DNA of 64,000 nucleotides from Candidatus Spechtbacterales bacterium (GCA_040902285.1 JBBDXP010000012.1:8501-72500), one strand, 5' to 3'; positions 7,865 through 56,317 are shown, counted from the stretch's first letter. The notes: generated from the sequence alone by a model not told the origin. Program-made: numbers and translations.

Positions 7865-7982
7865 TTCAGAACACAGCGTCAAAATCCCCAGCGCGGATTT
7901 TGCGCTCTTTCTCGCCCTCGCTCTCTCGCTTCGCTCGAACCGTGCCCGCTCGGGCTCCGAAGGGTTCCGAAGTTGAATATAA
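7865..7982. repeat. Family-B element copy B1: GC-rich core flanked by an 18-bp inverted repeat (ttatattcacttcagaac / gttccgaagttgaatataa)
   Basis: Core cgcttcgctcgaaccgtgcccgctcgggctccgaagg is homologous to the cores at 14718-14817 and 56172-56293. Confidence 0.5.
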
Positions 7983-8025
7983 CCGTATCGCCTTCGCCAC
8001 TACCTACTACTTACTTTTTTAAACC

Positions 8026-8844
8026 ATGCCTGAAATAATAGAAGCGGAAATAACAAGACAAAAATTAGCGCCGGCCCTGAAAGGCAGGCGCATTTTAAAG
8101 TTTACAACGGACTGCCCCCGCGGCTTTGTCTCGGAAAAGAAAATATGGCAAAGAGGGATTCCGTCTCTTAAAAATTTAGAAATAACCGGCATGTCCAGAA
8201 AAGGAAAGGTTGTCGTGCTAAACATCAAGGGCGGAAAAGTGATAGGAATACACCAGAGGATGAGCGGGCACATTGCTTTTAATAACAGCCATGTTGCAAG
8301 CAAGCACAGCCATTTTATTTTTGAAATGGATAACAAAAAAAGCTTCTCTCTTGTTGATCCCAGAAAATTCGGCATTGTTTGGTACGGGTCGGAAAAATGG
8401 TTTGGACAACAGCCATATATAAAAAAATTGGGCAAGGATGCCATGAAAATAAACGAAAAGGATTTTGTTAAAGTGTTTGAAGGCGCGGGCCGTGCTTCTG
8501 TAAAATCTTTTTTGTTGAGGCAGGATAAAATAGCGGGGCTCGGAAACATAGCATGCGACGAAACGCTCTGGCACGCGCGCTTAAATCCCGCCGCAAAAGT
8601 TTGTGACCTTACAGATACCCAGCTAAGAGGGGCGCACAAAAGCATGAAAAAGATTTTAGTCGATCTTTTGCGTTATGGCGGAACAAGCATGAGCGACTGG
8701 CTGCACCCCGATGGTTCAAAGGGAAATTATCAAAATAAATTTAAGATATATAAACGGCAAAAATGCAGGCGCTGTTCCTCGCAAGTTAAATATATAAAAG
8801 TAGCCGGGCGGGGAACATACTTTTGTCCTAAATGCCAGAAGTGA
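8026..8844 (+). CDS. Fpg/Nei family DNA glycosylase/AP lyase (formamidopyrimidine-DNA glycosylase-like)
   Basis: N-terminal MPEIIEAE (catalytic Pro2/Glu3). H2TH region. C-terminal zinc finger CRRCSSQVKYIKVAGRGTYFCPKCQ. Confidence 0.75.
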   Translation: MPEIIEAEITRQKLAPALKGRRILKFTTDCPRGFVSEKKIWQRGIPSLKNLEITGMSRKGKVVVLNIKGGKVIGIHQRMSGHIAFNNSHVASKHSHFIFEMDNKKSFSLVDPRKFGIVWYGSEKWFGQQPYIKKLGKDAMKINEKDFVKVFEGAGRASVKSFLLRQDKIAGLGNIACDETLWHARLNPAAKVCDLTDTQLRGAHKSMKKILVDLLRYGGTSMSDWLHPDGSKGNYQNKFKIYKRQKCRRCSSQVKYIKVAGRGTYFCPKCQK

Positions 8845-8850
8845 TATAAT

Positions 8851-9174
8851 GTGTATATGGATTTGTTTAAAAAAGGGGAAAAATATTCGTTTTTTAATCC
8901 AAAGAATGCGCTGTTCGGATTAATATGGGCGGATATTACTCTTTTAATTTTTTTCAGCCTGGCTGAACTGGATTACTATCTACACCGCTTTGTTTATATA
9001 CAAACGGATATTACCCGACCCATACCTCCTTATGTGTTTTGGATTTCTTTTGTGACCTTCATATTACCCCTAATTATTACTGGTAAGAATTGGGGCAAAA
9101 AAAATGCTTTATCTTTATTGGTTTATGAGATCTTGTTTATATTTTTAATTGTTTCGTTTTTAGTCATAGTTTAA
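8851..9174 (+). CDS. Hypothetical small membrane protein
   Basis: 107 aa with 2-3 hydrophobic helices. No recognisable motif. Confidence 0.35.
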   Translation: MYMDLFKKGEKYSFFNPKNALFGLIWADITLLIFFSLAELDYYLHRFVYIQTDITRPIPPYVFWISFVTFILPLIITGKNWGKKNALSLLVYEILFIFLIVSFLVIV

Positions 9175-9180
9175 ATTTTT

Positions 9181-9296
9181 ATGCGTTTAATCCATAAAAA
9201 GATATTAATAGTTATTCTATTTTCGACAGGGCTAGTTTCTCTTTCAGTTTTTGCAGGAAATTCCCTACAATTTCTTGGGAACCGGAAAATATAAAA
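9181..9296 (+). pseudogene. Signal-peptide-encoding 5' segment, out of frame with the downstream 714-aa ORF; likely the frameshifted N-terminus of the same gene
   Basis: ATG 9181 encodes MRLIHKKILIVILFSTGLVSLSVFAGNS… (classic n/h/c signal peptide) then stops at 9296. The 714-aa reading frame is open from 9198 but offset by one nt. Confidence 0.45.
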
Positions 9297-9356
9297 GTTC
9301 ATGTTTTCCCAGGTGGATTAAAAAGTATTGAGGCGACATTCATAAGTTCTAAGGAT

Positions 9357-11501
9357 TTGGAAAATGTTGAATTTAGAATCGCCCCAGAAATAGAACCTTT
9401 TATTGATGTAGAATCGGGCAACCTAGATTTAATACGGGCTGGTGAAGAAAATACAATAATCTTGAGTGTTGCAATGCCGACTGATGCGCCGTTGAGAACT
9501 TTCGATGGCGTTATTCAGATCAATGCTACAGAAAAATTAAGTGCCATAGAAAAATTTATGGGAAGGGTGCTTACAAAAAAAATCGACAAACAAAAACATC
9601 TTGCCAAACCATTGCCCGTGGAAGTTGAGGTAATATCTGCACAGCCAACTCTGGGTTTATTCGAAGAATTTTTAATTGAACAATTTGGTACCCTGACACC
9701 CGAGGTTGATTTTGAGGGAGATGTCTACGAATCAATAGCAACCCCCGAAGATATTATCAGTGGTTTTTCTCAAGGCACCGAAGGCGCTTTTGTGCTTGGT
9801 ATAGGATCAATCAAGTTCCTGGGGCCGTTTGGTGCAAACGAGGAAGCTGTTCTTGGGTCGCATGATTTGTTAACAGAATTGGCAGATCAAGGAGTTATTG
9901 TGGACGATCTAATGGATGCTTTAAAAGATCATGACATGTATATTGAAGGTACGAAAGATGTCTCTGAGCTTCTAATAACCCCAGGCTTAAATGCCGTAAT
10001 ATTTTTCCCCAGAAAGGGTGCACAATTTTTCACCACAACTCCTTATGATGAGAACGGAGATGGTATCACGGATCATTATGTGGTGATACTTGATAATGAT
10101 ACCCATGTGTTGCACAGAGCACATCATGTCAATGCTTTTATAAATCGCAACTTTTTTGTCGGAAATATCTTAAATAATTCATCCAGGACACTTGTTCATG
10201 AACTTTTGCACGCAGTAATTTTTAGAACGAATTGCTTTGTGGGCACCAGAGATGATGAGGAAGTTTTTGTGGAAGATATGCTCAGCGTATTGGATGCTAA
10301 ATTGAGTACCAACACAACATTCTATAACGCACTATTGTCACAAACCCTATCGGATTTTCCTCAAGGGGAAGATTGTTTAGACAGGTTGGGTCTTGAACCA
10401 GTATCCCAACAATGGTCAACTCCCGAAACCGTATCGACAATAACAGGCTCCTTTCCCGACATAGACACAGACCAAAACAATATACCCCACGTTGTATGGT
10501 ATAATTCTACGCCCTCCAGCACTAATATATTTTACAGCAAACAAAACACAGACCGGTCATGGATATCTCCTCAGGACATATCGGGAGTCCTGCATGCCGC
10601 GGGCAACCCCCCGGAACTTACAATAGACATAACGCAAAGCGACAGCGGAAGCATACACGTTGCGTGGTCTGCGGTAGTAGAAGAAAACAACCAAGAAATA
10701 TTTTATTCCAGATACAATGGATCCAGCTGGTCAACTCCTCTGAATGTATCCAACACTTCGGTTAATTCCACCTGGCCCTCTATTACCCTCGACAGCGCCG
10801 GCAACCCTCATATTGTATGGGAGGAGTTCTATGTAAGCGTAACTCCAACAGAGATATATTATACGCAATTCAACGGCAGTTCATGGTCCACTCCTCAAAA
10901 CATATCCAATTCTTCTTCTTTATCCCTCTCTCCCATAATTGCAACGGATAACCAAAATAACCTGCATGCAATATGGTATGAACAGCCCAATCTTCTACGG
11001 GCGGAAGGCCTTTATTATACAAAAAATATCAGCGGGAACTGGGTCTCTCCCGTCAAGATTTTTGATACGCACGGCTCAGGAATTGTTCATCCAGACGCCC
11101 CATCAATTGTCATAGACAAAAATGACAATATTCATCTTGCGTGGACAGATAATATATCCGGCAACGGAGAGATATATTACAGCAAATACGCCAATTCCTC
11201 ATGGCAAGATTCTCAAAATATATCCAACAGCGCCGGTACTTCTTGGGCATCCACAATATCCGTTGATTCCAACGACAATCCCCATATTGCATGGAGTGAC
11301 GGGGTCATAGGGACCATTAATTACAATATAAAATATACAAACTATAATGGTACTCAATGGCAGGACATACAGATCATTTCAAATGTACCGGGCAGGTCTT
11401 TTCAGCCCGAGATGGCAATAGGCACAGACGATGTGGTGCATCTTGTGTGGTTTGATATTCAAAGCGGAACCTACATATTCTATAGCAGCAGAGAACCGTA
11501 A
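9357..11501 (+). CDS. Large probably secreted protein: N-terminal HExxH domain plus C-terminal about 7 repeats of about 45 aa (beta-propeller-like)
   Basis: HELLHAVIF motif. Repeats of the form …SWSTP(L/Q)NISNS…(D/N)NPHI(A/V)W…(E/I)(I/F)YY(S/T). The start is assigned to TTG by the ORF track. The true start is probably upstream (see the 9181 pseudogene entry). Confidence 0.6.
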   Translation: MENVEFRIAPEIEPFIDVESGNLDLIRAGEENTIILSVAMPTDAPLRTFDGVIQINATEKLSAIEKFMGRVLTKKIDKQKHLAKPLPVEVEVISAQPTLGLFEEFLIEQFGTLTPEVDFEGDVYESIATPEDIISGFSQGTEGAFVLGIGSIKFLGPFGANEEAVLGSHDLLTELADQGVIVDDLMDALKDHDMYIEGTKDVSELLITPGLNAVIFFPRKGAQFFTTTPYDENGDGITDHYVVILDNDTHVLHRAHHVNAFINRNFFVGNILNNSSRTLVHELLHAVIFRTNCFVGTRDDEEVFVEDMLSVLDAKLSTNTTFYNALLSQTLSDFPQGEDCLDRLGLEPVSQQWSTPETVSTITGSFPDIDTDQNNIPHVVWYNSTPSSTNIFYSKQNTDRSWISPQDISGVLHAAGNPPELTIDITQSDSGSIHVAWSAVVEENNQEIFYSRYNGSSWSTPLNVSNTSVNSTWPSITLDSAGNPHIVWEEFYVSVTPTEIYYTQFNGSSWSTPQNISNSSSLSLSPIIATDNQNNLHAIWYEQPNLLRAEGLYYTKNISGNWVSPVKIFDTHGSGIVHPDAPSIVIDKNDNIHLAWTDNISGNGEIYYSKYANSSWQDSQNISNSAGTSWASTISVDSNDNPHIAWSDGVIGTINYNIKYTNYNGTQWQDIQIISNVPGRSFQPEMAIGTDDVVHLVWFDIQSGTYIFYSSREP

Positions 11502-11516
11502 ATACTCAAACCCCGA

Positions 11517-11540
11517 ACACGCACATCGATGTGCGTGTTT
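11517..11540 (+). terminator. Perfect palindromic hairpin (aacacgcacatcgatgtgcgtgtt) after the 714-aa gene
   Basis: 11-bp perfect stem. Weak T tract (ttt). Confidence 0.45.
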
Positions 11541-12020
11541 AGAGTTTGAATCTGTGGTTTGCATGATATAATGTGTATGAGGGTTGTATGAATATAAATT
11601 TGGCCTAAAGTAGTTTTCAAAGGGAGTTCTATATTACACAGTTCCTTGGAACAGTGTTGCGGACACCCACTATAGCCCCCCACCGCACATATAAAATCGA
11701 CTTGACGGAGTGAATTTTGATGAATATTCGAGGCGCGAGGAGTGTGGCGATGCCAGAGCATCGCGAGCGACGAGCAACGAAGAAGATTTGCAAAATTCAC
11801 CCGCCCTTCGGGGAACAAAAGAATAAACCGTCTGCTTCTTCATTCCTCCTTGAAGTATATATCTATACTCCTTCGTCGTCATTCATCGCATCCGGTTCAT
11901 TCTTTTGTTCTCAAGGTCCATTTTATATATGCGGTGTGGGGCTCCAATTTTAACCAAATTTCTAACATACTCCCTCAAGATGCGTCCCCCGATAAGTCGG
12001 GGGACTTGTCTAAAGACGGT

Positions 12021-12725
12021 ATGTATAAAAAAGAAAATTTTTCCGTTGTGGCTCTTGGGGGCTCAATTATAATTTCAAGAAAAATACAAACGGGGTACTT
12101 GAGGCGGCTTAGGAATTTTACTCAAAAACGTATAGAGAGCGGAGAGAAATTTATTTTTGTGGTGGGAGGCGGCTCTGTGGCTAGGAATTACCAAAGGGCG
12201 GCTTTTTCAATCGTAAATATTTCTAATGAGGACAAAGATTGGCTCGGAATACATTCCACTCGCCTCAACGCACATCTTTTGCGGACGATATTTAATGGTA
12301 TGGCGTATCCGATCGTTTTGGATGATCCTGAAAAACCGATAACCCAGCGCGATCTTAAAAAATATTCGCTTTTTATAGCTTCCGGATGGCGTCCCGGATG
12401 GAGCACGGATTATATCGCTTTTCGCCTGGCTCATCGTTTTGGCGCGAAGCGGGTAGTGGTGGCCACAAAAATTTCTAATGTGTATGACGCCGATATACAA
12501 ACGCATAAAAATGCGCGGCCGTTGAAAAGGATCAGCTGGAAAAGATATTCCAAACTTTTGCCGTCTAAAATATGGTATCCGGGAATGGGAAGTCCCGTTG
12601 ATCCCGTGGCAACAGAGTTTGCCGCGAAGAAAAAAATTTCATGCGTTGTTTTACGCGGAACAAATTTAAAAAATCTGAATAGGTTTTTGGACGGCAAAAA
12701 ATTTGAAGGCACGGTAATCAACTGA
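12021..12725 (+). CDS. Amino-acid kinase family protein, UMP kinase (archaeal-type PyrH)-like
   Basis: FSVVALGGSIII, FIFVVGGGSVARNYQ and DWLGIHSTRLNAHLL. About 234 aa from ATG 12021. The ORF-track extension back to 11742 is rejected. Confidence 0.6.
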   Translation: MYKKENFSVVALGGSIIISRKIQTGYLRRLRNFTQKRIESGEKFIFVVGGGSVARNYQRAAFSIVNISNEDKDWLGIHSTRLNAHLLRTIFNGMAYPIVLDDPEKPITQRDLKKYSLFIASGWRPGWSTDYIAFRLAHRFGAKRVVVATKISNVYDADIQTHKNARPLKRISWKRYSKLLPSKIWYPGMGSPVDPVATEFAAKKKISCVVLRGTNLKNLNRFLDGKKFEGTVIN

Positions 12726-12788
12726 TTCTTATTTTATGCGTCGAATTGACGTATTGATAAATAATATGTATAAATCAATGATAAACAT

Positions 12789-12912
12789 ATGAATCCCGTT
12801 AGTAATAACCCTAACGGGTTCACTAAACCAAGTGCAACAAAGACAAGTAGTTAATTCGTTTAAATATACATAAATTAAAACTGCGCAAGCAGTAATTACT
12901 AACGGGATGAAT
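12789..12912 (+). mobile_element. Family-A MITE-like element, copy A2; abuts dapB start
   Basis: …catATGAAT|CCCGTTAGTAATAACCCTAACGGG…GCAGTAATTACTAACGGG|ATGAAT atcgcg. The ATGAAT direct repeat is present on both sides. Confidence 0.6.
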
Positions 12913-13641
12913 ATCGCGCTTATAGGATATGGTTCAATGGGCTCTGTTGTGCGGCGAGTGGCGGAAGAAAGAGGACATAAAATTGTCTCAATAATAGATC
13001 CCAAAGCTCCGGAAGCCGCAGCTTTAGTTCCGAATGCCGAGGCTTTGTCGGACGCCGATGTGGCGGTGGATTTTTCGGCGGGCGAGTCGGTTTTGGACAC
13101 CATAAGGATTTGCAAAGAATCAGGGGTTAATTTAGTTGTGGGTACAACGGGGTGGTATGACAAACTTCAGGAAGCAAAAAATTTAGCGGAAGGAATTGGC
13201 TTTCTTTGGTCCTCTAATTTTTCCATAGGAGTAAATATATATTTTAAAGTGGTGGAAGCGGCTGCCAAACAAATGGATAAATTTGATGAATACGATGTGT
13301 GGGGGCACGAGATACACCATTACAATAAAGCGGACAGCCCTTCGGGAACCGCTAAAACCTTGGAAAAAATATTGCTTGATAATATAGAAAGAAAAACCTC
13401 GGCCGTTGAAGATAAGCTGGACCGCAAACGCAAAGACGAAGAAATCCATTTTTCTTCTGTAAGAGGCGGGGCTGTAAACTTTGGCCACACAATAGGATTT
13501 GATTCGGCGGCCGATAGAATTCTAATTACGCATGAAGCAAGAAGCAGAGACGGTTTTGCCTTGGGTGCTGTAAAAGCGGCCGAATGGCTAAAAGGCAAAA
13601 AAGGTTTTTTTGAAATGCAAGATTTTTTAAATAATAATTAA
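12907..13641 (+). CDS. dapB: 4-hydroxy-tetrahydrodipicolinate reductase
   Basis: N-terminal Rossmann fold IALIGYGSMGS and signature EIHHYNKADSPSGTA (E-x-HH-x-x-K-x-D-x-PSGTA). Confidence 0.85.
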   Translation: MNIALIGYGSMGSVVRRVAEERGHKIVSIIDPKAPEAAALVPNAEALSDADVAVDFSAGESVLDTIRICKESGVNLVVGTTGWYDKLQEAKNLAEGIGFLWSSNFSIGVNIYFKVVEAAAKQMDKFDEYDVWGHEIHHYNKADSPSGTAKTLEKILLDNIERKTSAVEDKLDRKRKDEEIHFSSVRGGAVNFGHTIGFDSAADRILITHEARSRDGFALGAVKAAEWLKGKKGFFEMQDFLNNN

Positions 13642-13759
13642 CGCTCACTTCGTTCGCTATTCACGCAGATTTATACAGATTAAGCGGATTTATGCTGATA
13701 CTTTTTAAACGCTATCCGCATTTATCAGCCTAATCCGCATTATCCGCGTTTAAGCGAGG

Positions 13760-14665
13760 GTGAAGCCCGAGCAAAAAAATATGGAAAAAACAAAATACGC
13801 GGGAACATGGACGGCTATTGTTACTCCTTTTAACGAAGATGGCAGTTTGGATGAACAATCTTTCCGTAAATTAGTGCAAAGACAAATAGAAGGTGGTGTT
13901 ACAGGGATAGTACCCGTGGGTACCACAGGAGAATCTCCCACGCTTTCGCTTGCCGAAATGACCAGGTTGTACGAAATAACGGTTGAAGAGTCCAAAGGAA
14001 AAGTGCTGGTAATGGCCGGAACAGGAAGCAATTCCACAGAGCATGCGGTGGAATACACAAAAGCCGCCAAAGAAGCAGGTGCCGACGCTTGTTTGGTTGT
14101 AACGCCTTATTACAACAAGCCCACGCCCGCCGGACTAAAAGCGCACTTTGCCGCCATTGCCGATGTTGGCTTGCCCTTGTTCGTTTACAATATAAAGGGC
14201 AGAACGGCTCTGAACATAGAGACGGATTTGCTTATGGAGATGGCCGAACACCCCAATATAATCGGGGTTAAGGAAGCCAGCGGCGATATTAACCAGATAA
14301 AAGAGGTTATAGAAAAAAGACCCGAAGGATTTGTGGTTTTAAGCGGCGACGATGGCATGACACTGGATTTGATGAAGGCCGGCGGAGACGGAATAGTTTC
14401 CGTTGCAAGCAATATCGTTCCCGAAAAAGTTGTGCAGTTGGTTAAATATGGATTGAGCGGCCAAATGGACAAGGCGGAGGAGTTGAACGGAGAGCTAAGC
14501 GATATGTTTAAAAAAATATTTATAGAAACAAATCCCGTTCCCACAAAGTACTGCTTGTATAAAATGGGGCTTTGCAAGCTGGCGTATCGTTTGCCCATGT
14601 GCGAGCCAACAGACGCTTCAAAAGAAGTTTTGAATAAAATGATTTCTGATTACGGTCTTATCTAA
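13760..14665 (+). CDS. dapA: 4-hydroxy-tetrahydrodipicolinate synthase
   Basis: GTWTAIVTPFNEDGSLDEQSFRKLV…GIVPVGTTGESPTLS. Active-site Lys region VYNIKGRT. Probable start at ATG 13781. Confidence 0.85.
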   Translation: MKPEQKNMEKTKYAGTWTAIVTPFNEDGSLDEQSFRKLVQRQIEGGVTGIVPVGTTGESPTLSLAEMTRLYEITVEESKGKVLVMAGTGSNSTEHAVEYTKAAKEAGADACLVVTPYYNKPTPAGLKAHFAAIADVGLPLFVYNIKGRTALNIETDLLMEMAEHPNIIGVKEASGDINQIKEVIEKRPEGFVVLSGDDGMTLDLMKAGGDGIVSVASNIVPEKVVQLVKYGLSGQMDKAEELNGELSDMFKKIFIETNPVPTKYCLYKMGLCKLAYRLPMCEPTDASKEVLNKMISDYGLI

Positions 14666-14690
14666 GTCTAAACAAAAGGCGCGCAGGGTG

Positions 14691-14840
14691 TACGGATGTG
14701 CGAATATTATTTTTAACGACCGAGGTCTGGTTTTTCCAGCGAAAACCAGCCTCTCCCTCTCGGCTCGCGGCCGCGCTTGCGCGCGAACCAAGCCCGCTTC
14801 GCCTCCGAGAATCCTTAAAAACAATATTCGCACATCCGTA
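14691..14840. repeat. Family-B element copy B2: GC-rich core flanked by a 26-bp inverted repeat (tacggatgtgcgaatattatttttaa / ttaaaaacaatattcgcacatccgta)
   Basis: Inverted repeat with one mismatch. Core …gcgcgaaccaagcccgcttcgcctccgagaatcc is homologous to the B1 and B3 cores. Confidence 0.55.
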
Positions 14841-14882
14841 TCTATCAGAAATTTAGTAGTAACAAATTCAATTTTATAGGAC

Positions 14883-16115
14883 ATGAACCAAGATGTAATT
14901 TATTATCCTGAAAGTTCAATAAAAGAGGCGGTGGAGAAATTCGAAACCCCGTTCTTTATTTATGAAGAAAAACGGCTTCGCGAGAACGCAGGCAGGTTTA
15001 GGGATACATTCCGAAAATATTTTCCGTCTTTCCAGCCATTGTTTGCGGTAAAAGCAAACCCAAACCCCGATGTTTTAAAAATAATCGCTGATGAGGGGTT
15101 TTTATTTGACGCTTCAAGCGCGGGCGAGGTTTGGATTTCGCAAAAACTGGGAATTGCCGGCATGCACACGGGAAATTATCTTGGAGCCGATGAACTCAAA
15201 ATGGCAAAAGATGCCGGGTTTACAATAAACTTGGATGACGTTTCTCAACTGGACTTTTTGAAAGAAATAGGCGTACCCGAAAAACTTTCGTTCCGCATAA
15301 ACCCGGGCATGGGAAAAGGAGAATACGAAAGTTTGATAATGGCGGGTCCCGACGCAAAATACGGAATACCTTACGAAAAAGCTGCCGATGCCTACAAAAA
15401 AGCACAGGATATGGGAGCCAAGCATTTTGGCATACACATGATGACCGGAAGTAATGTGCTGGATGAAGGATATTTTCCCGCAATCGTGGGCAGGTTGCTT
15501 GATACTATAGCAAATATAAAGGAAAAAACAGGTATAGAAATAGAGTTTATGAACATAGGGGGAGGATTTGGAGTGCCTTACCGCCCTGAAGAAAAAAGTT
15601 TGGATTTAGAAAGAGTGGCATCGGGAATACGAGAGGCGGTTGATAAAAAATGCAATGATTTACAAATACGCGAGCCGGTTCTTATGGCCGAACCAGGCCG
15701 GTATGTTTGCGCTGATGCCGGTTGGCTTGTTGGCCGTGTGCAGGTTATAAAAGACAGCTACAAAAAATTTGTCGGCATAGACGCGGCAAGCAACGATATG
15801 CCGAGACCCTCAATTTACGGGGCGTACCATCATATTTCTGTTTTGGATGGAGGCGACAAACAAGAAGAATTGGTTTCGGTTGTGGGAACGATTTGCGAAA
15901 ATAATGATCAATTTGGAAAGGACAGAGAGCTGCCGGCATGCAAAAGGGGGGATATTGTAATAATCCATAATTGCGGAGGACACGCCAGGGCAATGGGCCA
16001 CAATTACAATGGAAAATTAAGACACGCTGAGTATTTAATAGAAAAAAACGGAAACCTAAAACAGATAAGGACATCGGAAACCGTAGAAGATCTGTACAGA
16101 GGAACAAATATATGA
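14883..16115 (+). CDS. lysA: PLP-dependent Orn/DAP/Arg decarboxylase family; diaminopimelate decarboxylase by context
   Basis: FAVKANPNPDVLKII (PLP-Lys motif), GGGFGVPY and EPGR. Sits between dapA and the DapL-like aminotransferase. Confidence 0.7.
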   Translation: MNQDVIYYPESSIKEAVEKFETPFFIYEEKRLRENAGRFRDTFRKYFPSFQPLFAVKANPNPDVLKIIADEGFLFDASSAGEVWISQKLGIAGMHTGNYLGADELKMAKDAGFTINLDDVSQLDFLKEIGVPEKLSFRINPGMGKGEYESLIMAGPDAKYGIPYEKAADAYKKAQDMGAKHFGIHMMTGSNVLDEGYFPAIVGRLLDTIANIKEKTGIEIEFMNIGGGFGVPYRPEEKSLDLERVASGIREAVDKKCNDLQIREPVLMAEPGRYVCADAGWLVGRVQVIKDSYKKFVGIDAASNDMPRPSIYGAYHHISVLDGGDKQEELVSVVGTICENNDQFGKDRELPACKRGDIVIIHNCGGHARAMGHNYNGKLRHAEYLIEKNGNLKQIRTSETVEDLYRGTNI

Positions 16116-16236
16116 ATCCCGTTAGTAGTTACCCTAACGGGTCATTCATTGAAATAATATTAAAATTAACAATAATTACCGCTGTAGCATTTTATTGCGA
16201 CAGGACTGCGCAGTAGTAACTACTAACGGGATGAAT
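16112..16236 (+). mobile_element. Family-A MITE-like element, copy A3; inserted at the lysA-stop/dapL-start ATGA overlap
   Basis: …atATGAAT|CCCGTTAGTAGTTAC…GTAACTACTAACGGG|ATGAAT atag. Perfect 15-bp TIR. Removing the element plus one ATGAAT copy restores a 4-nt ATGA stop/start overlap. Confidence 0.65.
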
Positions 16237-17406
16237 ATAGAACCATCCAAAAGATTAAAATCATTGCCCTCGTACGCGTTTGCCGATATCAGCAACAAAG
16301 TTGAAGAATTGCGCCAGAAGGGCGTTAAAATAATTGATTTTGGAGTGGGGGACCCTTCGGAGCCCGCTCCGGATTTTGTAATAGAAAGATTAAGCGAATT
16401 CGGGCGCAAGCATGCTTCAACCGGTTACCCCAGTTACATAGGCAGTAAGGATTTTAGGCAAGCTGCGGCAAATTATATGCAAAAAAGATTTGGTGTTGAA
16501 CTTGACCCCGAAAAAGAAATTTCTTCAAACATCGGCTCAAAAGAAGCGATATTCAATTTTCCCGAAGGATTTGTGAACCCCGGAGATATTGTTATTTGTC
16601 CCTCTCCTGGATATCCGCCCATGAAAACAGGAACAATTTTTGCAGAAGGCGAGCCTTATTATGTACCCTTGCTGGAGAAAAACGGATTTTTGGTTGATTA
16701 CGAATCCATTCCACAAGACATCGCGCAAAAGGCAAAGATAATTTGGATAAACTATCCAAATTCTCCAACCGGAGCTGTAGCTTCGCGGGAATATTACGAA
16801 GGATTATTGGATTGGGCGCACAAAAATAATATTATAGTAGCGGCTGACGAGGGTTGCTATATAGATATTTATTTTGATGAAAAACCATCTTCAATATTGG
16901 AAGTGGCGCGCGAAGGAGTGATTGCGTTTTATTCTTTATCAAAACGCAACAATATGACCGGTTACAGAGCTGGCTTTGTTTGTGGAGATGAAAATATAGT
17001 AAAAATTTTCAAAGACCTTAAAACCAATATAGATTCCGGCACGCCAAGCATTGTACAGGAAGCGGGAATAGCCGCGCTTGCCGATGATGAACATGCTGAA
17101 AAAATGCGCCGGATCTATCAAGAAAAACGCGATATCCTTCTGTCTGCTTTGCAGGAGGGAGGCTTTGAAACAGGGAACAGTGGAGCCACTTTTTACATAT
17201 GGCAAAAAGTAAAAGGCAGTGATATGGAATTTGCCAAAAAGCTTTTGGAAACAGAACCGGGTATAGTTGTTACGCCCGGAAGTTTGATATCGGATGAATG
17301 TGCTGGAGGAATAAATCCCGGATACGGATATGTGAGAATAGCTCTGATGCCGGCACTAGAAGAAGTAAAAGAAGCTGCCCAAAAATTTAAACGCTTGGCA
17401 CAATAA
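16231..17406 (+). CDS. Class I aminotransferase, LL-diaminopimelate aminotransferase (DapL)-like
   Basis: N-terminus SYAFADISNKVEELRQKGVKIIDFGVGDPSEP matches the DapL-type N-terminus. PLP-Lys region SLSKRNNMTGYRAGF. Start at ATG 16231 formed by the element terminus. Confidence 0.65.
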   Translation: MNIEPSKRLKSLPSYAFADISNKVEELRQKGVKIIDFGVGDPSEPAPDFVIERLSEFGRKHASTGYPSYIGSKDFRQAAANYMQKRFGVELDPEKEISSNIGSKEAIFNFPEGFVNPGDIVICPSPGYPPMKTGTIFAEGEPYYVPLLEKNGFLVDYESIPQDIAQKAKIIWINYPNSPTGAVASREYYEGLLDWAHKNNIIVAADEGCYIDIYFDEKPSSILEVAREGVIAFYSLSKRNNMTGYRAGFVCGDENIVKIFKDLKTNIDSGTPSIVQEAGIAALADDEHAEKMRRIYQEKRDILLSALQEGGFETGNSGATFYIWQKVKGSDMEFAKKLLETEPGIVVTPGSLISDECAGGINPGYGYVRIALMPALEEVKEAAQKFKRLAQ

Positions 17407-17410
17407 AATA

Positions 17411-17436
17411 ATACACCCCCGAAAGAGGGGTGTATT
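17411..17436. terminator. Bidirectional terminator hairpin (atacacccccgaaagaggggtgtat) between convergent genes
   Basis: 9-bp GC stem with A- and T-runs on both sides. Confidence 0.6.
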
Positions 17437-18140: not shown

Positions 18141-18270
18141 GGTCTTCCTCCCTTCCTTTTTATTTTAAAGTTCTGAAGTTATCCTATCACATTACTACCG
18201 TTTAGCAATAAAAATCTTGACCAAATTACCGCTATGATTTATAATATGCCAAGAAAAAGAGGATAGAAAA

Positions 18271-31600: not shown

Positions 31601-31856
31601 AACTAATTACAATTTATGTGTTAATTTTTAAAAAAGCAGTTTGCCTGCTTGCCCGGCTGCACTTCGTTTGTCGGAGCGCCGGGGCTTGGCGTCAAGTTGC
31701 TAAATTCGCTTCGCTCATTAAGCACTTCCTGCCCGGCCTCGCCTGTGTCTCCCGCCTGCGCCGAGGCTTCGGCGGGCAGGTCGGCACATGGCTCCGGCTT
31801 TCAAGCCCGGACGCAGGCAAAGCAGTTTGCCTGCTCGCCCGACCGCACTTCGTTTG

Positions 31857-31927
31857 TCGGAGCGCCGGGGCTTGAACCCGGTTCGCATGACCCCCAGCCA
31901 TGCATAATACCCATATACTACGCTCCG
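31857..31927 (-). tRNA. tRNA-Pro (anticodon GGG)
   Basis: Reverse complement folds as a tRNA. Acceptor CGGAGCG/CGCTCCG (C1:G72 as in bacterial tRNA-Pro). U8, A14, GG18-19. Anticodon stem CATGG/TCATG with loop CTGGGGG (U33, anticodon GGG, G37). T-arm CCGGG-TTCAAGC-CCCGG. Discriminator A. CCA not encoded. Confidence 0.7.
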
Positions 31928-44423: not shown

Positions 44424-44438
44424 TAGTAAATAAATCAT

Positions 44439-44828: not shown

Positions 44829-44835
44829 ATAAATT

Positions 44836-45378: not shown

Positions 45379-45386
45379 TAAATAAA

Positions 45387-45746: not shown

Positions 45747-45749
45747 AAT

Positions 45750-46310: not shown

Positions 46311-46319
46311 TAATTTATC

Positions 46320-46772: not shown

Positions 46773-46787
46773 TAAATATATTAAAAA

Positions 46788-48077: not shown

Positions 48078-48134
48078 CATTCATTTTTAAGCTTGTATGC
48101 TGGTATAATGCTTATATGAACTATAAGCATTTTT

Positions 48135-48755: not shown

Positions 48756-48758
48756 AAA

Positions 48759-49508: not shown

Positions 49509-49546
49509 CATTCTGGCGACCTGCGATTTCGTGATACAATAAGTAT

Positions 49547-50305: not shown

Positions 50306-51338
50306 AAATAAAAAATCTAAACCGGTAAATCCTCAAAAAAAAGTATCTGAACTTAGGAGGGATCTGGTAACGGGGGATTGGATTGCTATAGCAACGGGCA
50401 GGGCGGGGAAACCGCGAGCTTTTATAAAAGAGGACAAATCGCGCCTGGATACGGACATAACTAAATGTCCGTTCGAGAATCCTCAGGCGCACGGCAACAA
50501 GCCGCCGCTTCTTTTGTATAAAAATAAGAAACATCCCGATTGGAGCTTACAGGTTATACCCAACAAATATCCGGCTTTCGGCCATATGGAAGGTTGCGGG
50601 GATATACAAGAAGTAGGCCCGTATCTTGTTCGCGACGGCAGGGGGTATCACGAGGTAATAATAACTCGGGATCACAAAAAACATTTGGCGCTTTTGGCTC
50701 TTGGCGAAGTGGCAGAGGTTATTAGCGCATACAAAGCGCGTTATCTGGTTCTTAAAGAGGATGAATGCGTAAAATATATTTCGATTTTTCATAACCACGG
50801 CGCGGATGCGGGGGCCTCTCTTCCTCATCCCCACTCTCAGCTTATAGCGGTTCCTTTTGTGCCTTCGGATATTCACCGTTCCCTGGTTGGCTCTAATATG
50901 TTTTTTCGCAAAAACGGCCAATGCGTCCATTGTTCAATGGTGGCCTGGGAATTAAAAGATAAAAAGAGATTGGTTTTTGAAAACGAAATGTTTGTCGCTT
51001 TTTGCCCCTTTGTTTCGCGGACCGCTTTTGAGATAAGAATATTTCCAAAAGGGCACAGGGCTTACTTTGAAAACCTTCCGGATAAGGATATACCTCAATT
51101 AGCGGAAGCATTGCGGGCTTCTCTGGCAAAATTAAACAAGCTGTTGGATGATCCTTCATATAATTTTTTTATACACACAGCTCCCGTAGACGGAGGAAAA
51201 TACCCCAATTATCACTGGCACATAGAAATACTTCCCAAAACCGCGATATGGGCGGGTTTCGAGCTTGGAACGGGCATAGAAATATCAACATTGGAACCCA
51301 AAAAAGCCGCCAAATTTTTAAGAGATGTTAAAATATAG
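50280..51338 (+). CDS. Galactose-1-phosphate uridylyltransferase-like HIT-superfamily nucleotidyltransferase
   Basis: ELRRDLVTGDWIAIATGRAGKP and active-site HPHSQ (GalT H-P-H). Overlaps the GT2 3' end by 26 nt. Confidence 0.65.
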   Translation: MMVKKKTSKNKKSKPVNPQKKVSELRRDLVTGDWIAIATGRAGKPRAFIKEDKSRLDTDITKCPFENPQAHGNKPPLLLYKNKKHPDWSLQVIPNKYPAFGHMEGCGDIQEVGPYLVRDGRGYHEVIITRDHKKHLALLALGEVAEVISAYKARYLVLKEDECVKYISIFHNHGADAGASLPHPHSQLIAVPFVPSDIHRSLVGSNMFFRKNGQCVHCSMVAWELKDKKRLVFENEMFVAFCPFVSRTAFEIRIFPKGHRAYFENLPDKDIPQLAEALRASLAKLNKLLDDPSYNFFIHTAPVDGGKYPNYHWHIEILPKTAIWAGFELGTGIEISTLEPKKAAKFLRDVKI

Positions 51339-51343
51339 TTATT

Positions 51344-51967
51344 ATGGATAATTTGCTGGCATGGCTCGCTTCTTTAATAATCAATACCATAGACCAGATG
51401 GGATACGCGGGTGTTTTTGTACTAATGGCACTAGAGAGCGCCAATATTCCCATACCTTCAGAAATCACGATGACATTTTCAGGTTTTTTGGCATCGCTTG
51501 GTCGGCTTAATTTTTATTGGATAGTTTTTTGGGGCGCGTTAGGCAATCTTATAGGTTCTTTGGCGGGCTATTATATAGGATTTTTCGGGGGGCGCCCTTT
51601 TGTGAAAAAGTATGGAAAGTATATGTTCATGCATGAGCATGATATAGCTATGGCAGAAAACATGTTTGCAAGATACGGAAAATCAATAGCGTTTTTTTCC
51701 AGATTGCTTCCGGTAATCAGGACTTTTATTTCAACTCCTGCCGGAATTGCTAAAATGAATATATGGCAGTTTTCCGTTTATACTTTCGCCGGTTCTTTTA
51801 TCTGGTCTGCCATGTTGGCATATGTCGGATTTTTAGCCGGAGAAAACTGGGATTTTCTTAGTCCTTATTTTAGAAAATTTGACTGGGTCATAATATTGTT
51901 TGGAATTGTTGCCGTTGCGTGGTGGATAAGGAGACACTATAAAATATCTAAAAAATATGGACAATAG
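51344..51967 (+). CDS. DedA/TVP38 family membrane protein
   Basis: GYAGVFVLMALESANIPIPSE…FFGGRPFVKKYGKY…FFSRLLPVIRTFIS. Confidence 0.75.
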   Translation: MDNLLAWLASLIINTIDQMGYAGVFVLMALESANIPIPSEITMTFSGFLASLGRLNFYWIVFWGALGNLIGSLAGYYIGFFGGRPFVKKYGKYMFMHEHDIAMAENMFARYGKSIAFFSRLLPVIRTFISTPAGIAKMNIWQFSVYTFAGSFIWSAMLAYVGFLAGENWDFLSPYFRKFDWVIILFGIVAVAWWIRRHYKISKKYGQ

Positions 51968-52715
51968 AAAAAAATATTTCATCGCAAATTGGAAAATGAA
52001 TCCCGCGTCAGAAAACGACGCCAAGAAACTTGCCCGCAATGTGGTTGCCCTCTTGCGCGCGGTTAAAAAAAGAGGGAATACCCGAATTGTTTTATGTCCT
52101 CCTTTTACGTTCTTACTGCCCGTTGCTTCATTGCTGGGCTATGGCGCGGAATTAGGCGCTCAAAACTGTCATTTCGAGGACTCGGGAGCTTACACAGGGG
52201 AAGTATCGGCAAAAATGCTTAAAAGTTTAAAATGTCGATATGTAATTGTCGGGCATTCGGAGCGCAGAAATTATTTTAACGAGGATTCTAAATTAATAAA
52301 CAAAAAACTTCATTCCGTTTTAAAAAATGGTTTAACGCCGGTTTTGGCCGTGGGAGAAAAAGAAGGAGAATCTGTAAAAGTGATAGAGCGCCAGCTTAAA
52401 GAAGCTCTTGAGGGTGTAAGCGGAGCCAAGGCAAAAAATATTATAATAGCTTACGAACCGGTCTGGGCTATAGGTACGGGAAAATCCGCCACCGCGGATA
52501 ATGCTATGAGCGCCCGGATAATGATAAGAAAGGTGTTGGCGGCTTTTTATCCCAAAACAACGGCAAATAAGATTCCTGTTTTATACGGGGGCAGCACAGA
52601 TAGCAAAAACATAGTCCGTTTTACCAAAGACGCTCAAATGGACGGCGCGCTTGTGGGGGACTCAAGCTTAAACGCAAAAGAATTTATTAAAATGGTTGAA
52701 GAAATAGGAAAATGA
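51957..52715 (+). CDS. tpiA: Triosephosphate isomerase
   Basis: FIANWKMN, VIVGHSERR, AYEPVWAIGTGKSAT. Confidence 0.9.
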   Translation: MDNRKKYFIANWKMNPASENDAKKLARNVVALLRAVKKRGNTRIVLCPPFTFLLPVASLLGYGAELGAQNCHFEDSGAYTGEVSAKMLKSLKCRYVIVGHSERRNYFNEDSKLINKKLHSVLKNGLTPVLAVGEKEGESVKVIERQLKEALEGVSGAKAKNIIIAYEPVWAIGTGKSATADNAMSARIMIRKVLAAFYPKTTANKIPVLYGGSTDSKNIVRFTKDAQMDGALVGDSSLNAKEFIKMVEEIGK

Positions 52716-52836
52716 GTCCCGTTAGTAATTACCCTAACGGGTCTGCTAAACTAAGTACAGTAAATATAGGTAGTTGATTTAGTTAAATACATATAAATTA
52801 AAACTGCGTAAGTAGTAATTACTAACGGGATGAGAT
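52712..52836 (+). mobile_element. Family-A MITE-like element, copy A4; inserted at the tpiA-stop/pgk-start ATGA overlap
   Basis: …gaaaATGAGT|CCCGTTAGTAATTAC…GTAATTACTAACGGG|ATGAGA ttattgg. About 97% identical to A1. Coordinates ±2. Confidence 0.65.
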
Positions 52837-53978
52837 TATTGGAAAATTTAAAAATAGAACCACACACACGGGTTATCTTAAGGACTGATTACAATGTGTC
52901 TGTTGTTAACGGAAAAGTGGAGGATGATTTCAGAATAGAGGCCTCTCTTAAAACCATTGAATACCTGTTGGCCAAGAAAGCAAAAATAATAATAATGTCG
53001 CATATGGGCAGGCCCCGGGGGCGCGACAAGTCCTTAAGTTTGAAGCCAGTTGCCGATCATTTGGAAACCCTTTTAAATAAAAAAATTTTGTTTTTTGCTG
53101 ATGTTGAAACGGCTCAGCATAGCATAGAGGATATGAAGCCGGGGGATATAGCAATGCTCGAAAATCTGCGCTTTTTTCCGGGAGAAGAGGCGTCTGACAA
53201 GCGGTTCGCTAACGAACTTTCAAAACTGGGAGATGTGTATGTTGACGACGCCTTTGCGGTTGCTCATCGCAAACACACTTCCGTTTTTCTGCTTCCCCGG
53301 CTTTTGCCTCCGGCGGCCGGATTTTTAATACAAAAAGAGGTAAATGTTCTGGATGAAATACGCGTGGCGCAAAAACCGCCCGTAGTTTTTATACTCGGCG
53401 GCGCCAAGGTGGAAACAAAGGTAAAGATATTCATTAAGCTTATCCACAAAATAGATGCCATATGTATTGGAGGCCTGCTTGCCAACTCTATTTTGATGAC
53501 TAAAGGCATAGCCATAGGAAAATCTAATTATGAAGATATAGCGCAATATGTTGACGGCATGGATCTCACAGATACCCGCTTGCACCTTCCTTTGGATGTT
53601 GTGGTTTCAAAAGACCCCTCGGGCAAAAGTCCTGCGAGAATAACGGCTGTAGCAAGCGTAAAGGCCGATGAAATGATACTGGATGCCGGTCCCGACACCA
53701 TAAAGTTATTCTCAAAGATAATAAGAACAGCGGGTACTGTTGTTTGGAATGGACCGTTGGGAGTTTTTGAAATAGAAAAATTCAGCAAAGGAACAAGGGA
53801 TCTTGCCAAAGAGTTAAAAAACACAAAAGCGAGAGTTGTTGTCGGCGGGGGAGATATAGTGCGGGCAATACATAAAGTTGGAGCCGAAAAATCCATATAC
53901 TACCAGTCCACCGGAGGCGGGGCCATGCTTGAATATCTGGCCGAAGGAAAACTACCCGCGCTGGATGTCCTTAAATAA
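52830..53978 (+). CDS. pgk: Phosphoglycerate kinase
   Basis: Typical PGK N-terminal (…DYNVSVVNGKVEDDFRIEASLKTI…) and C-terminal GGGA motifs. 382 aa. Confidence 0.9.
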   Translation: MRLLENLKIEPHTRVILRTDYNVSVVNGKVEDDFRIEASLKTIEYLLAKKAKIIIMSHMGRPRGRDKSLSLKPVADHLETLLNKKILFFADVETAQHSIEDMKPGDIAMLENLRFFPGEEASDKRFANELSKLGDVYVDDAFAVAHRKHTSVFLLPRLLPPAAGFLIQKEVNVLDEIRVAQKPPVVFILGGAKVETKVKIFIKLIHKIDAICIGGLLANSILMTKGIAIGKSNYEDIAQYVDGMDLTDTRLHLPLDVVVSKDPSGKSPARITAVASVKADEMILDAGPDTIKLFSKIIRTAGTVVWNGPLGVFEIEKFSKGTRDLAKELKNTKARVVVGGGDIVRAIHKVGAEKSIYYQSTGGGAMLEYLAEGKLPALDVLK

Positions 53979-53989
53979 GAGTCAAAACA

Positions 53990-55684
53990 ATGAGTTTACT
54001 AAATAAAACCTGGAAAATAAACAAGCCGGCTCCGCCGAGCTTTATTAAATTAAAAACAGGGTATTCGGAAGTTGTAGGACAACTTCTTTGGAATAGAGGT
54101 GTAAAAACAAAAAAGAATACCGGCAAATTTATGCATCCGGATTATTACAAAGACCTTCACGATCCAAAATTATTAAAAAATATAAACACCGCCATAAAAA
54201 GGATAAGTTCCGCTATAGAGAAAAATGAAAAAATTTTAATATATGGCGATTACGACGCTGACGGCGTTTGCAGTTCCACCCTTTTAAAAGAAGGACTGCA
54301 AAGATGCGGCGCCACAAACATATCGGTATATATTCCTCACAGAGACGATGAGGGTTATGGTCTTAATGAGTCAGCCGTGCACCAATTTATAAAAGAAAAA
54401 TACAATTTGCTAATAACAGTGGATTGCGGCTCCGGCAACATTGAAGAAATAAAATTAGCGCAAGATAACGGTATAGATGTTGTGGTAATAGACCACCACC
54501 AAGTTTTAACAGAGAAAAAATTTTGCCATGCGCTGGTAAACCCTCACCAAAAAGGAGATAAATATCCCTTTAAAGACATTTGCGCTACGGCAGTCGCGTT
54601 TAAGGTTATACAGGCGTTAAACGCGAAAACAAAGTCCTTTGAAAAGGAACAGGAAAAATGGTTTTTGGATTTGGTGGCGATAGCCACAGTAACCGATGTA
54701 ATGCCCCTAATTGACGAAAACAGAACTTTTGTAAAATACGGGCTTATGGTTTTGAAAAAAACAAAGCGCGAAGGACTTAAGGCGCTTATGGAGGTATCTA
54801 AACTTAAAAATTTAAACTCCGACGCGCTCGGATTCATTTTAGGTCCCCGAATAAACTCGGCTGGCAGAGTCGCGCATGCCGACCTCGCGTTTAATTTGCT
54901 TAACGCCAAAAAACCCGCGAAAGCAAAGGCGTTTGCCCTACGGCTTGAAAATAAAAACAAGGAACGACAAAAAATAGTTTCCAAAATCTTAGAAGAAATA
55001 GATTTCGAAACTTTAAAAGGACAGAATGTTATATTTGAAGGCAAAGAACACTGGCCCATAGGTGTTCTTGGTATAGTTGCGGGACGGCTGGCAGATACTT
55101 TTGGAAAACCTTCTTTTGTTTATCAGAAAAAACAAGCGGTTTTAGTGGGCTCGGCAAGAACGCCCTACAATTTTAACACTGTGCAAATACTTTCAAGCTG
55201 TGAAAATATTCTTCAAAAATTTGGCGGGCACAGGCAGGCAGGCGGTTTTACCGCTCTTTTAGAACACGAAGAAGCGCTTGCGAAAGGGATTAACAAACAC
55301 ATCATAAATATGGGAAAAAGGATCAAAAACAAATTACCGGTTCTTTCTATAGACGCTGATGTAACAGCCGGAGATATAAATTACGACCTTTACAAGCAAT
55401 TACTCTTGCTTGAGCCCTACGGAGAGGGCAATCCCAGGCCCAATTTTATTCTAAAAAACGCGCAACTAAAAAATATGCGCTTGGTGGGCTCGAAAAACAC
55501 TCACTTAAAATGCGCCATAGAAAAGGATAACAAAACACTAAGTGCTATAGGTTTTAACATGGCCACTGCCGCGGCAAACTTACAAAACAGCGATATCGTT
55601 GATATAGTGTTTAATATAGACATAAACGATTTTAACGGGGTACAAAACCTGGACCTAAAACTGGTGGATATAAAAAAGAGATAA
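53990..55684 (+). CDS. recJ: Single-stranded-DNA-specific exonuclease RecJ
   Basis: DHH motifs LIYGDYDADGVCSS, VDCG and VVIDHHQ, plus DHHA1 region. Confidence 0.85.
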   Translation: MSLLNKTWKINKPAPPSFIKLKTGYSEVVGQLLWNRGVKTKKNTGKFMHPDYYKDLHDPKLLKNINTAIKRISSAIEKNEKILIYGDYDADGVCSSTLLKEGLQRCGATNISVYIPHRDDEGYGLNESAVHQFIKEKYNLLITVDCGSGNIEEIKLAQDNGIDVVVIDHHQVLTEKKFCHALVNPHQKGDKYPFKDICATAVAFKVIQALNAKTKSFEKEQEKWFLDLVAIATVTDVMPLIDENRTFVKYGLMVLKKTKREGLKALMEVSKLKNLNSDALGFILGPRINSAGRVAHADLAFNLLNAKKPAKAKAFALRLENKNKERQKIVSKILEEIDFETLKGQNVIFEGKEHWPIGVLGIVAGRLADTFGKPSFVYQKKQAVLVGSARTPYNFNTVQILSSCENILQKFGGHRQAGGFTALLEHEEALAKGINKHIINMGKRIKNKLPVLSIDADVTAGDINYDLYKQLLLLEPYGEGNPRPNFILKNAQLKNMRLVGSKNTHLKCAIEKDNKTLSAIGFNMATAAANLQNSDIVDIVFNIDINDFNGVQNLDLKLVDIKKR

Positions 55685-55686
55685 AT

Positions 55687-56130
55687 ATGGCACAATCAAA
55701 CAAAATCACAGTTCATGTTGATGGAGGAGCGCGTGGAAATCCGGGACCTGCGGCACTTGGTGTTGTTTTTGCGGCACCCTTAAATAAAGAATATTCAAGT
55801 TATCTGGGAGTAAAAACAAACAACGAGGCCGAATATTCAGCGGTTGTCTTTGCTTTGCAAAAATTAAAATCTTTGCTTGGAAAAGATAAAACAAAAAATA
55901 CAGAGGTACAATTTTTTATGGATTCCGAACTTGCCGTTAAGCAGTTAAGCTACCAGTACAAAATTGAAAGTCCAAATATAATACCTCTATTCATAAAAAT
56001 ACATAATTTAAGATTGGGTTTCGATAAAGTGGCATTTACGCACGTTCCTCGAGAAAAAAATAAAGATGCCGACAGAATGGTCAACGTGGAATTGGATAAG
56101 CGCATGGGAAAAAATTTGTTTAATTCTTAA
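55687..56130 (+). CDS. RNase H (type 1-like)
   Basis: ITVHVDGGARGNPGPAALGVV… D-E-D-D arrangement. Confidence 0.7.
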   Translation: MAQSNKITVHVDGGARGNPGPAALGVVFAAPLNKEYSSYLGVKTNNEAEYSAVVFALQKLKSLLGKDKTKNTEVQFFMDSELAVKQLSYQYKIESPNIIPLFIKIHNLRLGFDKVAFTHVPREKNKDADRMVNVELDKRMGKNLFNS

Positions 56131-56140
56131 ACCAATTCAA

Positions 56141-56317
56141 CAGAAAGTTCCGATATTCTTATCCGAAGAGCTCTCGGAGGCGCAAAAGCTTGGTTCCCGT
56201 AGGGAGTTTGTGCTGAGAGGCAGCGGACGGTTTCCGTCCGCCTCGGCTTCGCCTCAGCGAGACGGGCTGGAGAAACCGGACCGCGGTCTGAGGATAAGAA
56301 GTATCGGAACTTTCTAA
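56141..56317. repeat. Family-B element copy B3: GC-rich core flanked by a 24-bp inverted repeat (cagaaagttccgatattcttatcc / ggataagaagtatcggaactttctaa)
   Basis: Core …tctcggaggcgcaaaagcttggttcccg… matches the reverse complement of the B2 core (tctcggaggcgaagcgggcttggttcgcg). Confidence 0.55.

Follow-up and report, generated by a model that had tools for sequence, protein, structure and literature searches.

bcr1 of the Bacillus cereus group is a repeat of ~155 bp that resembles a MITE (a miniature transposable element with inverted repeats), is transcribed, and carries compensatory changes that preserve its RNA structure (PMC3184786). Correia elements (Correia/CREE/NEMIS) of Neisseria have terminal repeats of ~26 bp around a conserved core of ~100 bp (PMC2649163, PMC2229807) and are bound by RNase III (PMC2649163). 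ERIC/IRU (RU-1) elements of enterobacteria are imperfect palindromes of ~127-155 bp that lie between genes (PMC2759123, PMC3184786). These three are the closest precedents for a repeat, here called family B, that we describe from a 64,000-nt stretch of DNA (the window; GC 42%) in the metagenome-assembled genome of an uncultured Candidatus Spechtbacterales bacterium, a member of the candidate phyla radiation (CPR, Patescibacteria). Family B comprises three copies in the window (B1, B2, and B3) and homologous copies in L082, a contig of a relative; L-numbers denote loci or contigs of other genomes. We read B1, B2, and B3 as diverged copies of a ~155-nt non-coding, MITE-like hairpin repeat that is mobile now or was so recently, and put the probability of this reading at about 0.65.

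Family B shares with bcr1 a length of ~155 bp, interspersed intergenic placement, a distribution that is not conserved between relatives, and a long cruciform-like fold with compensatory changes. However, bcr1 is flanked by 5-bp direct repeats, whereas family B has no clear duplication, and bcr1 is known to be transcribed. Because the hosts are Firmicutes and CPR, respectively, sequence similarity is not expected. The arrangement of terminal repeats around a core recalls the Correia elements, as do intergenic placement beside, or co-transcription with, genes, a long hairpin that is a plausible RNase III substrate, and possible TA flanks at B1 and B2. Correia terminal repeats are nevertheless conserved and make promoters, and their core has an IHF site; the family B arms vary, no promoter-like site was found at the ends of B1 or B3, and no IHF site was identified. 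The family B core is instead a covarying three-way junction, and Correia copies number hundreds per genome against 3 per 64 kb here. ERIC and family B are both imperfect palindromes of similar length, intergenic, and more conserved across species than neutral DNA. They are without sequence relationship, and ERIC is palindromic over almost its whole length, whereas family B pairs only over its outer ~30 bp around a core of two separate hairpins.

Three intergenic copies share a core and an architecture

The copies lie after ndk, dapA, and an RNase H gene, and the gene map bears out an earlier reading made from the sequence only (hereafter the sequence-only reading) that all three are intergenic. 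B1 separates ndk (7162-7809) from fpg (8026-8844), and B2 separates dapA, encoding DHDPS (13760-14665), from lysA (14883-16115). B3 begins 9 nt past the stop codon of the RNase H gene (55687-56130) and is followed by a bidirectional terminator (56367-56391). Each copy is a local GC island (0.68-0.69 in 80-nt windows); the surrounding genome, described in that reading as otherwise AT-rich, is only moderately so.

The proposed architecture of inverted repeats around a GC-rich core was recovered at all three loci, and each folds more stably than shuffled sequence. B1, taken as 7842-7996, folds at -70.3 kcal/mol (z -5.4), B2 has z-scores of -8.5/-9.5, and B3 folds at -88.7 kcal/mol (z -5.9). The repeats had been given as 18-26 bp long. 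They are present at every locus; those of B2 measure 29 nt (93% complementary and 92 nt apart in the inverted-repeat search), and the B1 arms extend outward imperfectly to ~7846 and ~7992, where the closing stem ends, so that B1 is longer than first reported. Across family B the inverted arms span 17-30 bp.

The cores are homologous to one another, as had been claimed. Local alignment of the B1 and B2 cores gave z 8.4, and B2 shares with the reverse complement of B3 the block GACCGNGGTCYGGTTTYTCCAGC (20/23 identical) and a second block, GAACCAAGC...GCCTCCGAGA. Direct alignment of the B1 and B3 cores was not significant, and B2 therefore bridges the two. A covariance model, which the sequence-only reading had proposed for the cores, was built from an alignment (A2) of the five full copies themselves, namely B1, B2, B3, and two from L082. 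Run on the window with filters off, this model (R1) matched exactly three copies, B1, B2, and B3, at 85-162 bits, and the opposite strand scored only 14-30 bits; other weak hits were generic long hairpins. The lengths that the model defines (154-157 nt in four copies and 179 nt in B3) indicate a well-defined unit.

The arms travel with the element

L082 is one metagenome contig, found by a RecJ-based scan, whose RNase H is 80% identical to that of the window. It holds three family B copies, one of them a relic (Table 1). The relic is of the B1 type (~85% identity to B1 over aligned blocks), and a complete B2-type copy, L082n, interrupts it at the position of the variable hairpin, arms included. 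The other full copy, L082a, is also of the B2 type. The arms of B2, L082a, and L082n are mutually homologous in shuffle-based alignment (z 6-15); against the two L082 copies, the B2 left arm scores z 7.2 and 8.6 and its partner arm z 6.8 and 6.4. Since homologous arms occur at different loci and the nested copy carries its arms with it, the arms belong to the element and travel when it moves. They are element-borne rather than pre-existing palindromes, and the unit of family B extends over the entire sequence, with its terminal inverted repeats of ~30 bp.

Compared with one another, the arms of B1, B2, and B3 have no detectable similarity (z <1.5), and a resemblance seen by eye was dropped because it was not significant on shuffling. 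Given the homology within the B2 type, this mismatch reflects subfamily divergence, not captured target palindromes, and the window copies represent at least two or three subfamilies. The sequence-only reading had described the flanks as unrelated between copies and the element as the opposite of a MITE. The first statement is true for the window. The second holds only between subfamilies, which have core blocks but not arms in common; within a subfamily the arms are conserved as well.

Both the B1-type and the B2-type subfamily occur in both genomes. B2 and L082a, which occupy different loci in different genomes, are 81% identical, and the RNase H genes of the window and L082 have an overall identity of 76%, which falls to 52% at third codon positions. 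Same-subfamily copies of the two genomes are thus closer than the synonymous sites of those genomes, which fits either recent spread or purifying selection, whether this serves the host or the propagation of the element itself. The site 3' of RNase H is occupied by independent copies in the two genomes, by B3 of the divergent subfamily on the plus strand in the window and by a B2-type copy in the opposite orientation in L082. Inversion of one ancestral copy was rejected as an explanation, as the arms of B3 and L082a are not homologous.

Table 1. Family B copies and their parts. The strand given for each copy is the one matched by model R1 (the putative folded strand).
Feature	Sequence	Coordinates	Strand or orientation	Basis and remarks
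Copy B1 (B1-type subfamily), ~155 nt	Window	7842-7996	-	R1 84.8 bits, E 5e-17
B1 inner left arm, TATATTCACTTCAGAAC	Window	7865-7881		Partner 7965-7982; extended-arm alignment with 27 matches, one bulge
B1 inner right arm, GTTCCGAAGTTGAATATA	Window	7965-7982		Sequence, arm alignment, fold
Copy B2 (B2-type subfamily), 155 nt	Window	14689-14843	-	R1 161.5 bits on -, 30.1 on +
B2 left arm of closing stem, TACGGATGTGCGAATATTATTTTTAACGA	Window	14691-14719		Inverted-repeat search; homologous to arms of both full L082 copies
B2 right arm of closing stem	Window	14812-14840		Inverted-repeat search; arm homology to L082
B2 hairpin P2, 13-bp stem	Window	14722-14753	-	Loop 14735-14741, TCCAGCG (+) / CGCUGGA (-)
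Copy B3 (divergent subfamily), 179 nt	Window	56139-56317	+, opposite to B1 and B2	R1 98.7 bits on +, 14.4 on -
B3 left arm, CAGAAAGTTCCGATATTCTTATCC	Window	56141-56164		Sequence, fold, arm alignment
B3 right arm, GGATAAGAAGTATCGGAACTTTCT	Window	56294-56317		Sequence, fold, arm alignment
B3-specific extra segment, ~30 nt, P2 loop region	Window	56236-56265	+	Gap block in alignments A1 and A2
L082a, B2-type full copy	L082	875-1028	Opposite to B3	7 nt past RNase H stop codon
L082n, second B2-type full copy	L082	8126-8282		Nested inside B1-type copy
B1-type relic, two halves, own arms lacking	L082	8084-8126 and 8280-8320		Flanks 8126-8282 on both sides

A conserved fold is supported by covariation

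A consensus fold was computed with RNAalifold on A2, in which the five full copies are aligned on their better-folding strand. A closing stem of ~30 bp (P0) leads to a three-way junction with two hairpins. P1 starts with a CUC/GAG stem; an internal loop, GGA/GA, that is invariant separates this from a GGC/GCC stem, beyond which the distal hairpin varies. Each of its two short stems has changed on both sides in at least one copy, and the distal position holds a different AT-rich hairpin in L082n and the nested insertion in the L082 relic. P2 is a 13-bp stem with a CGCUGGA loop that is invariant in all five copies, B3 having ~30 extra nt there. Its stem covaries under the fixed loop (CTGGTTTT/AAAACCAG, CCGATTTT/AAAATCGG, GGTTTTC, and AAAATCC/GGATTTT). 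The GGA/GA internal loop, a GGGAG junction, and the CGCUGGA loop make up a set of conserved, purine-rich unpaired motifs.

A covariation test had also been proposed in the sequence-only reading, and its outcome is strong but not definitive support for the fold. Standard pairs fill 88% of cells, against 39-46% with slid partners; 28 of the 59 pairs show compensatory changes on both sides, against 7-9 when slid; and the covariation score is 0.442, against 0.10-0.14. None of 500 shuffles matched the observed values.

The better-folding strand is consistent in all five copies, by 7-13 kcal/mol, and is the minus strand for B1 and B2 and the plus strand for B3. When the arms were aligned in a strand-symmetric way, transition mismatches read as G·U on the model strand in 8 cases and on the other strand in 2 (p=0.11), which is suggestive only as a strand assignment. 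A wobble count based on RNAalifold (27 G·U versus 7 A·C) was discarded as strand evidence because it is biased by the strand used for prediction. The selected fold would fit RNA or single-stranded DNA (ssDNA) alike.

Related genomes have empty sites

Comparison with related genomes for presence or absence, likewise suggested from the sequence, showed that all three window sites are empty in more distant relatives. The ndk-fpg spacer of L096 (Fpg 57% identical) is 2 nt long and has no B1 counterpart; dapA and lysA overlap in L001 (dapA 66% identical), which has no B2 counterpart; and the RNase H stop codon of L083 and of L090, whose RNase H is 71-73% identical, leads straight to the terminator and the 3' end of rnpB. 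In none of the four does a palindrome stand where the element would be.

No family B copy was detected by the model or by nhmmer in other Spechtbacterales loci fetched through RNase H or Fpg homologues (L083-L099, ~200 kb), and the distribution is therefore patchy. Among the genomes sampled, family B is restricted to that of the window and one close relative. Viral contigs (searched with two specific patterns) and plasmid and phage collections contained no match. A concatenated six-frame query against a set of 5.8 billion proteins, directed at copies in spurious open reading frames (ORFs), gave no hit at E ≤ 1.

Family B is non-coding and MITE-like

A protein-coding role was rejected: in six-frame translations of the 154-179 nt elements, frames shift between copies and no reading frame is conserved. 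Membership in a known RNA family was rejected as well, as an Rfam scan of the window at gathering thresholds returned tRNA-Pro only and in E-value scans of the three loci no match over the cores was better than E 0.5. Inspection by eye for hammerhead, twister, K-turn, and tRNA T-arm motifs yielded none that fitted. No consistent promoter or terminator of the copies was found, and both neighboring genes run antisense to the copy in four cases out of five.

The family has hallmarks of a MITE, being short (<~600 bp) without a conserved ORF and having terminal inverted repeats and dispersed copies with presence/absence polymorphism. With classical MITEs derived from insertion sequences (IS; PMC10969869) it also shares nested insertion; unlike them, it is without a known cognate IS with matching ends and without clear target duplication. 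We regard family B as a new family of an already known sort of small bacterial mobile repeat, and not as a new class of system.

Several observations weigh against mobility of this kind. No transposase or recombinase was found among the window ORFs scanned with Pfam, nor was an autonomous partner found. The flanks are TA/TA at B1 and B2 and CA/TA at B3, with none at the two full L082 copies, so that there is no consistent target-site duplication; TA is self-complementary, which makes a TA flank indistinguishable from an extension of the inverted repeat. Between subfamilies the arms are the least conserved part and the core surpasses them, the reverse of classical MITEs, whose terminal repeats are best conserved, and of what end-binding by a DDE transposase predicts. 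The sample is small (five full copies and one relic from two genomes), and the ends, the age of activity, and the covariation all rest on it, the model having been built from the sequences on which it is tested. The relatives with empty sites are fairly distant (57-73% protein identity), and precise excision or insertion junctions are unreadable in them.

Proposed mechanism and comparison with single-strand systems

The target of selection is probably a folded single strand, either a transcript or an ssDNA intermediate, rather than a terminal binding site in double-stranded form, because core and pairing are conserved between subfamilies while arm sequence is not. Family B may be moved in trans by an enzyme encoded outside the window, and mobilization would proceed through recognition of the folded strand. 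When transcribed together with its neighbors, in either orientation, the 25-30 bp stem would give double-stranded RNA suited to RNase III or would form a barrier at the mRNA 3' end, as is known of Correia elements. For the host, double-stranded RNA may thus arise within the dapA-lysA, ndk-fpg, and RNase H transcripts, which could be processed by RNase III or have their 3' ends stabilized.

In the apparent recognition of a folded strand, and in stems whose sequence varies while their pairing is conserved, family B resembles integron attC sites and the hairpin elements of IS200/IS605 (PATEs, REP). attC sites, however, are found in cassette arrays with an integrase; R-boxes (R''/R', RYYYAAC/GTTRRRY) form the base of their stem, they have extrahelical bases, and their center is variable, with no conserved core. 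In family B, TCTAAC/GTTAGAA-like motifs lie at the inner and not the outer end of the stem, the center is conserved, and the neighbors are housekeeping genes. Derivatives of IS200/IS605 lack a long terminal inverted repeat, carry a separate subterminal hairpin at each end, and use a specific target of 4-5 nt, whereas a terminal stem of ~30 bp closes family B, P1 and P2 are dissimilar, and the copies have no common flanking tetranucleotide.

Alternative explanations

The sequence-only reading had offered two explanations. One was a structured small RNA inside long stems, of which only the structure is supported, by the covariation. In its full form, this explanation takes the copies as paralogous, stand-alone genes for a structured small RNA with a cellular function, transcribed from the model strand and spread by duplication instead of transposition. 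The strong covariation, the conserved purine-rich unpaired motifs, the folding advantage of one strand in all five copies, the excess of arm wobble pairs on the model strand, and conservation above that of synonymous sites all speak for it. We nevertheless consider it unlikely. The wobble excess is not significant, and four copies are not only antisense to both neighbors but wedged into junctions at which the genes of relatives overlap or abut. L082 contains a nested copy and a decayed relic, and no member of the family occurs in the other Spechtbacterales loci, which have an RNase H with 69-80% identity to that of the window. The antisense placement, the lack of a consistent promoter or terminator, and the opposite orientations at the same RNase H site in two genomes argue for a mobile repeat rather than a dedicated small RNA gene. 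The other explanation, that a mobile GC-rich core of ~100 bp inserts into the center of existing AT-rich palindromes or terminator stems and takes its arms from the target, is highly improbable, although the dissimilar arms of B1, B2, and B3 speak for it and all copies lie just past stop codons, a position in which terminators occur. It is contradicted by the arm homology between B2 and copies at different loci of another genome (z 6-9), by the nested copy, which brings the same arms into a B1-type element, and by empty sites without a palindrome. Moreover, no T-run follows the arms, and the real terminator beside B3 is separate from it. The nested copy and unrelated hairpin elements in rnpB, described below, do lie at hairpin tips, but such sites in RNA genes are explicable by survivorship, because insertion elsewhere would be lethal.

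The same hairpin-tip positions enter another proposal, which we hold to be distinctly unlikely: family B would be one of several Spechtbacterales hairpin families that move as a folded single strand (ssDNA or RNA), are recognized by their conserved three-way-junction core and not by the terminal repeats, and insert preferentially at the tips of existing hairpins. If true, this would explain why arms change only by compensation, why the variable hairpin of one copy houses another, complete copy, and why unrelated hairpin elements occupy hairpin tips (P19 and P16/17) in genes for RNase P RNA; it would amount to a structure-guided mode of transposition. A domesticated role, in place of a selfish one, is improbable as the reason for the element's retention. 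It would make the repeat a cis-acting part of transcripts, such as an RNase III site, a 3'-end stabilizer, or an operon decoupler, and draws on the near-perfect stems of 25-30 bp, which would form in either transcript orientation, on the position of B3 upstream of the terminator, in the 3' untranslated region of RNase H, and on such effects of Correia elements (PMC2649163). The conserved, orientation-specific core is left unexplained by such a role, and the same operons work without the element in relatives; the proposed role is better seen as an added consequence of a mobile repeat than as an exclusive alternative to it. A MITE-like hairpin-forming repeat with a constrained fold is the most economical reading.

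Other hairpin repeats in Spechtbacterales

The RNase P RNA gene next to B3 (class A, 56392-56894, minus strand) scores 78.1 bits against an Rfam gathering threshold of 100. It carries an insert of ~130-140 nt at the P19 position (~56424-56566) with the inverted repeat CCAAAATTG.../...CAATTTTGG; at this position, rnpB of L083 and L090 has no hairpin or only a 4-bp hairpin. L086, from another Spechtbacteria genome, has three copies of a ~135 bp hairpin repeat (4588-4722, 5003-5135, and 5250-5385; arms CCCCTCACCCAGAAAGAGC/...CTGGGTGAGGGG), one of which interrupts the gene for RNase P RNA at the P16/17 position. In L082, a GC-rich inverted-repeat element (1029-1235; arms GCGCTTTCGGCAATTTCCG.../...CGGAAAGTTGCGGAAAGCGC) directly follows the family B copy past RNase H and is not significantly similar to it.

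The window also contains a conventional MITE family of ~130 bp (4926-5057, 12783-12914, 16106-16238, and 52706-52837, with a variant at 59619-59744), presumably the first repeat family of the sequence-only reading. Its terminal repeats, AATCCCGTTAGTAAYTAC, are conserved and its copies are 82-97% identical. A 28-nt inverted repeat, AGCCCCCCACCGCACATATAAAATCGAC, surrounds 214 nt at 11674-11943, in the long spacer before an amino-acid kinase gene, and encloses a second inverted-repeat pair of 23 nt (11813-11910). Short repeats of the TAGTAGGTAG/CTACCTACTA type form palindromes at 58392-58489, and the same motif, CTACCTACTACTTAC, occurs right after B1 (7997-8020). A long inverted repeat, CCGGTAGGACAATTTCGAAT/ATTCGAAATTGTACTAACCGG, also follows dapA in the Kaiserbacteria contig L002 (2215-2375); its core is not GC-rich, and it is unrelated to family B. 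Kinship of family B with the first MITE family, the 11674-11943 element, the rnpB insert, the L082 element ('family C'), the L086 repeat, and the L002 inverted repeat was rejected (z at most ~3 in 32 comparisons).

A GC-rich segment between tRNA-Pro direct repeats (31691-31819) had been singled out in the sequence-only reading as similar to the family B cores. It is unrelated, with an alignment z of ~0 and no meaningful model match. The direct repeat is 56 nt long (31633-31688 and 31819-31874, 95% identical), flanks a 130-nt GC-rich segment, and consists of the 3' 19 nt of tRNA-Pro(GGG) and 37 nt downstream. It looks like what a site-specific integration leaves behind, or like 186 bp duplicated at the 3' end of the tRNA.

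Short-read unitigs of this genome from SRR27977660 break at several of these repeats: one starts at 7958, within B1 (L081), another at 59714, within the 59619-59744 element (L094), and a third ends at ~2445, at a perfect palindrome (2415-2448; L095). Such repeats therefore fragment assemblies of this organism.

Implications for CPR genomes

Small non-coding mobile repeats are scarcely documented in the small, compact genomes of CPR bacteria, and our literature search found nothing specific on them. The window indicates that these compact genomes can nevertheless hold several families of hairpin repeats, which split operon genes that formerly overlapped or abutted, such as dapA-lysA and ndk-fpg. 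A hairpin insert unrelated to family B keeps the RNase P RNA under its Rfam threshold, and short-read contigs end at family B and at other hairpin elements; knowing this is of practical use for the annotation and assembly of CPR genomes. With its conserved core and compensating arms, family B is a tractable case in which to ask whether the transcript or an intermediate of transposition is under selection.

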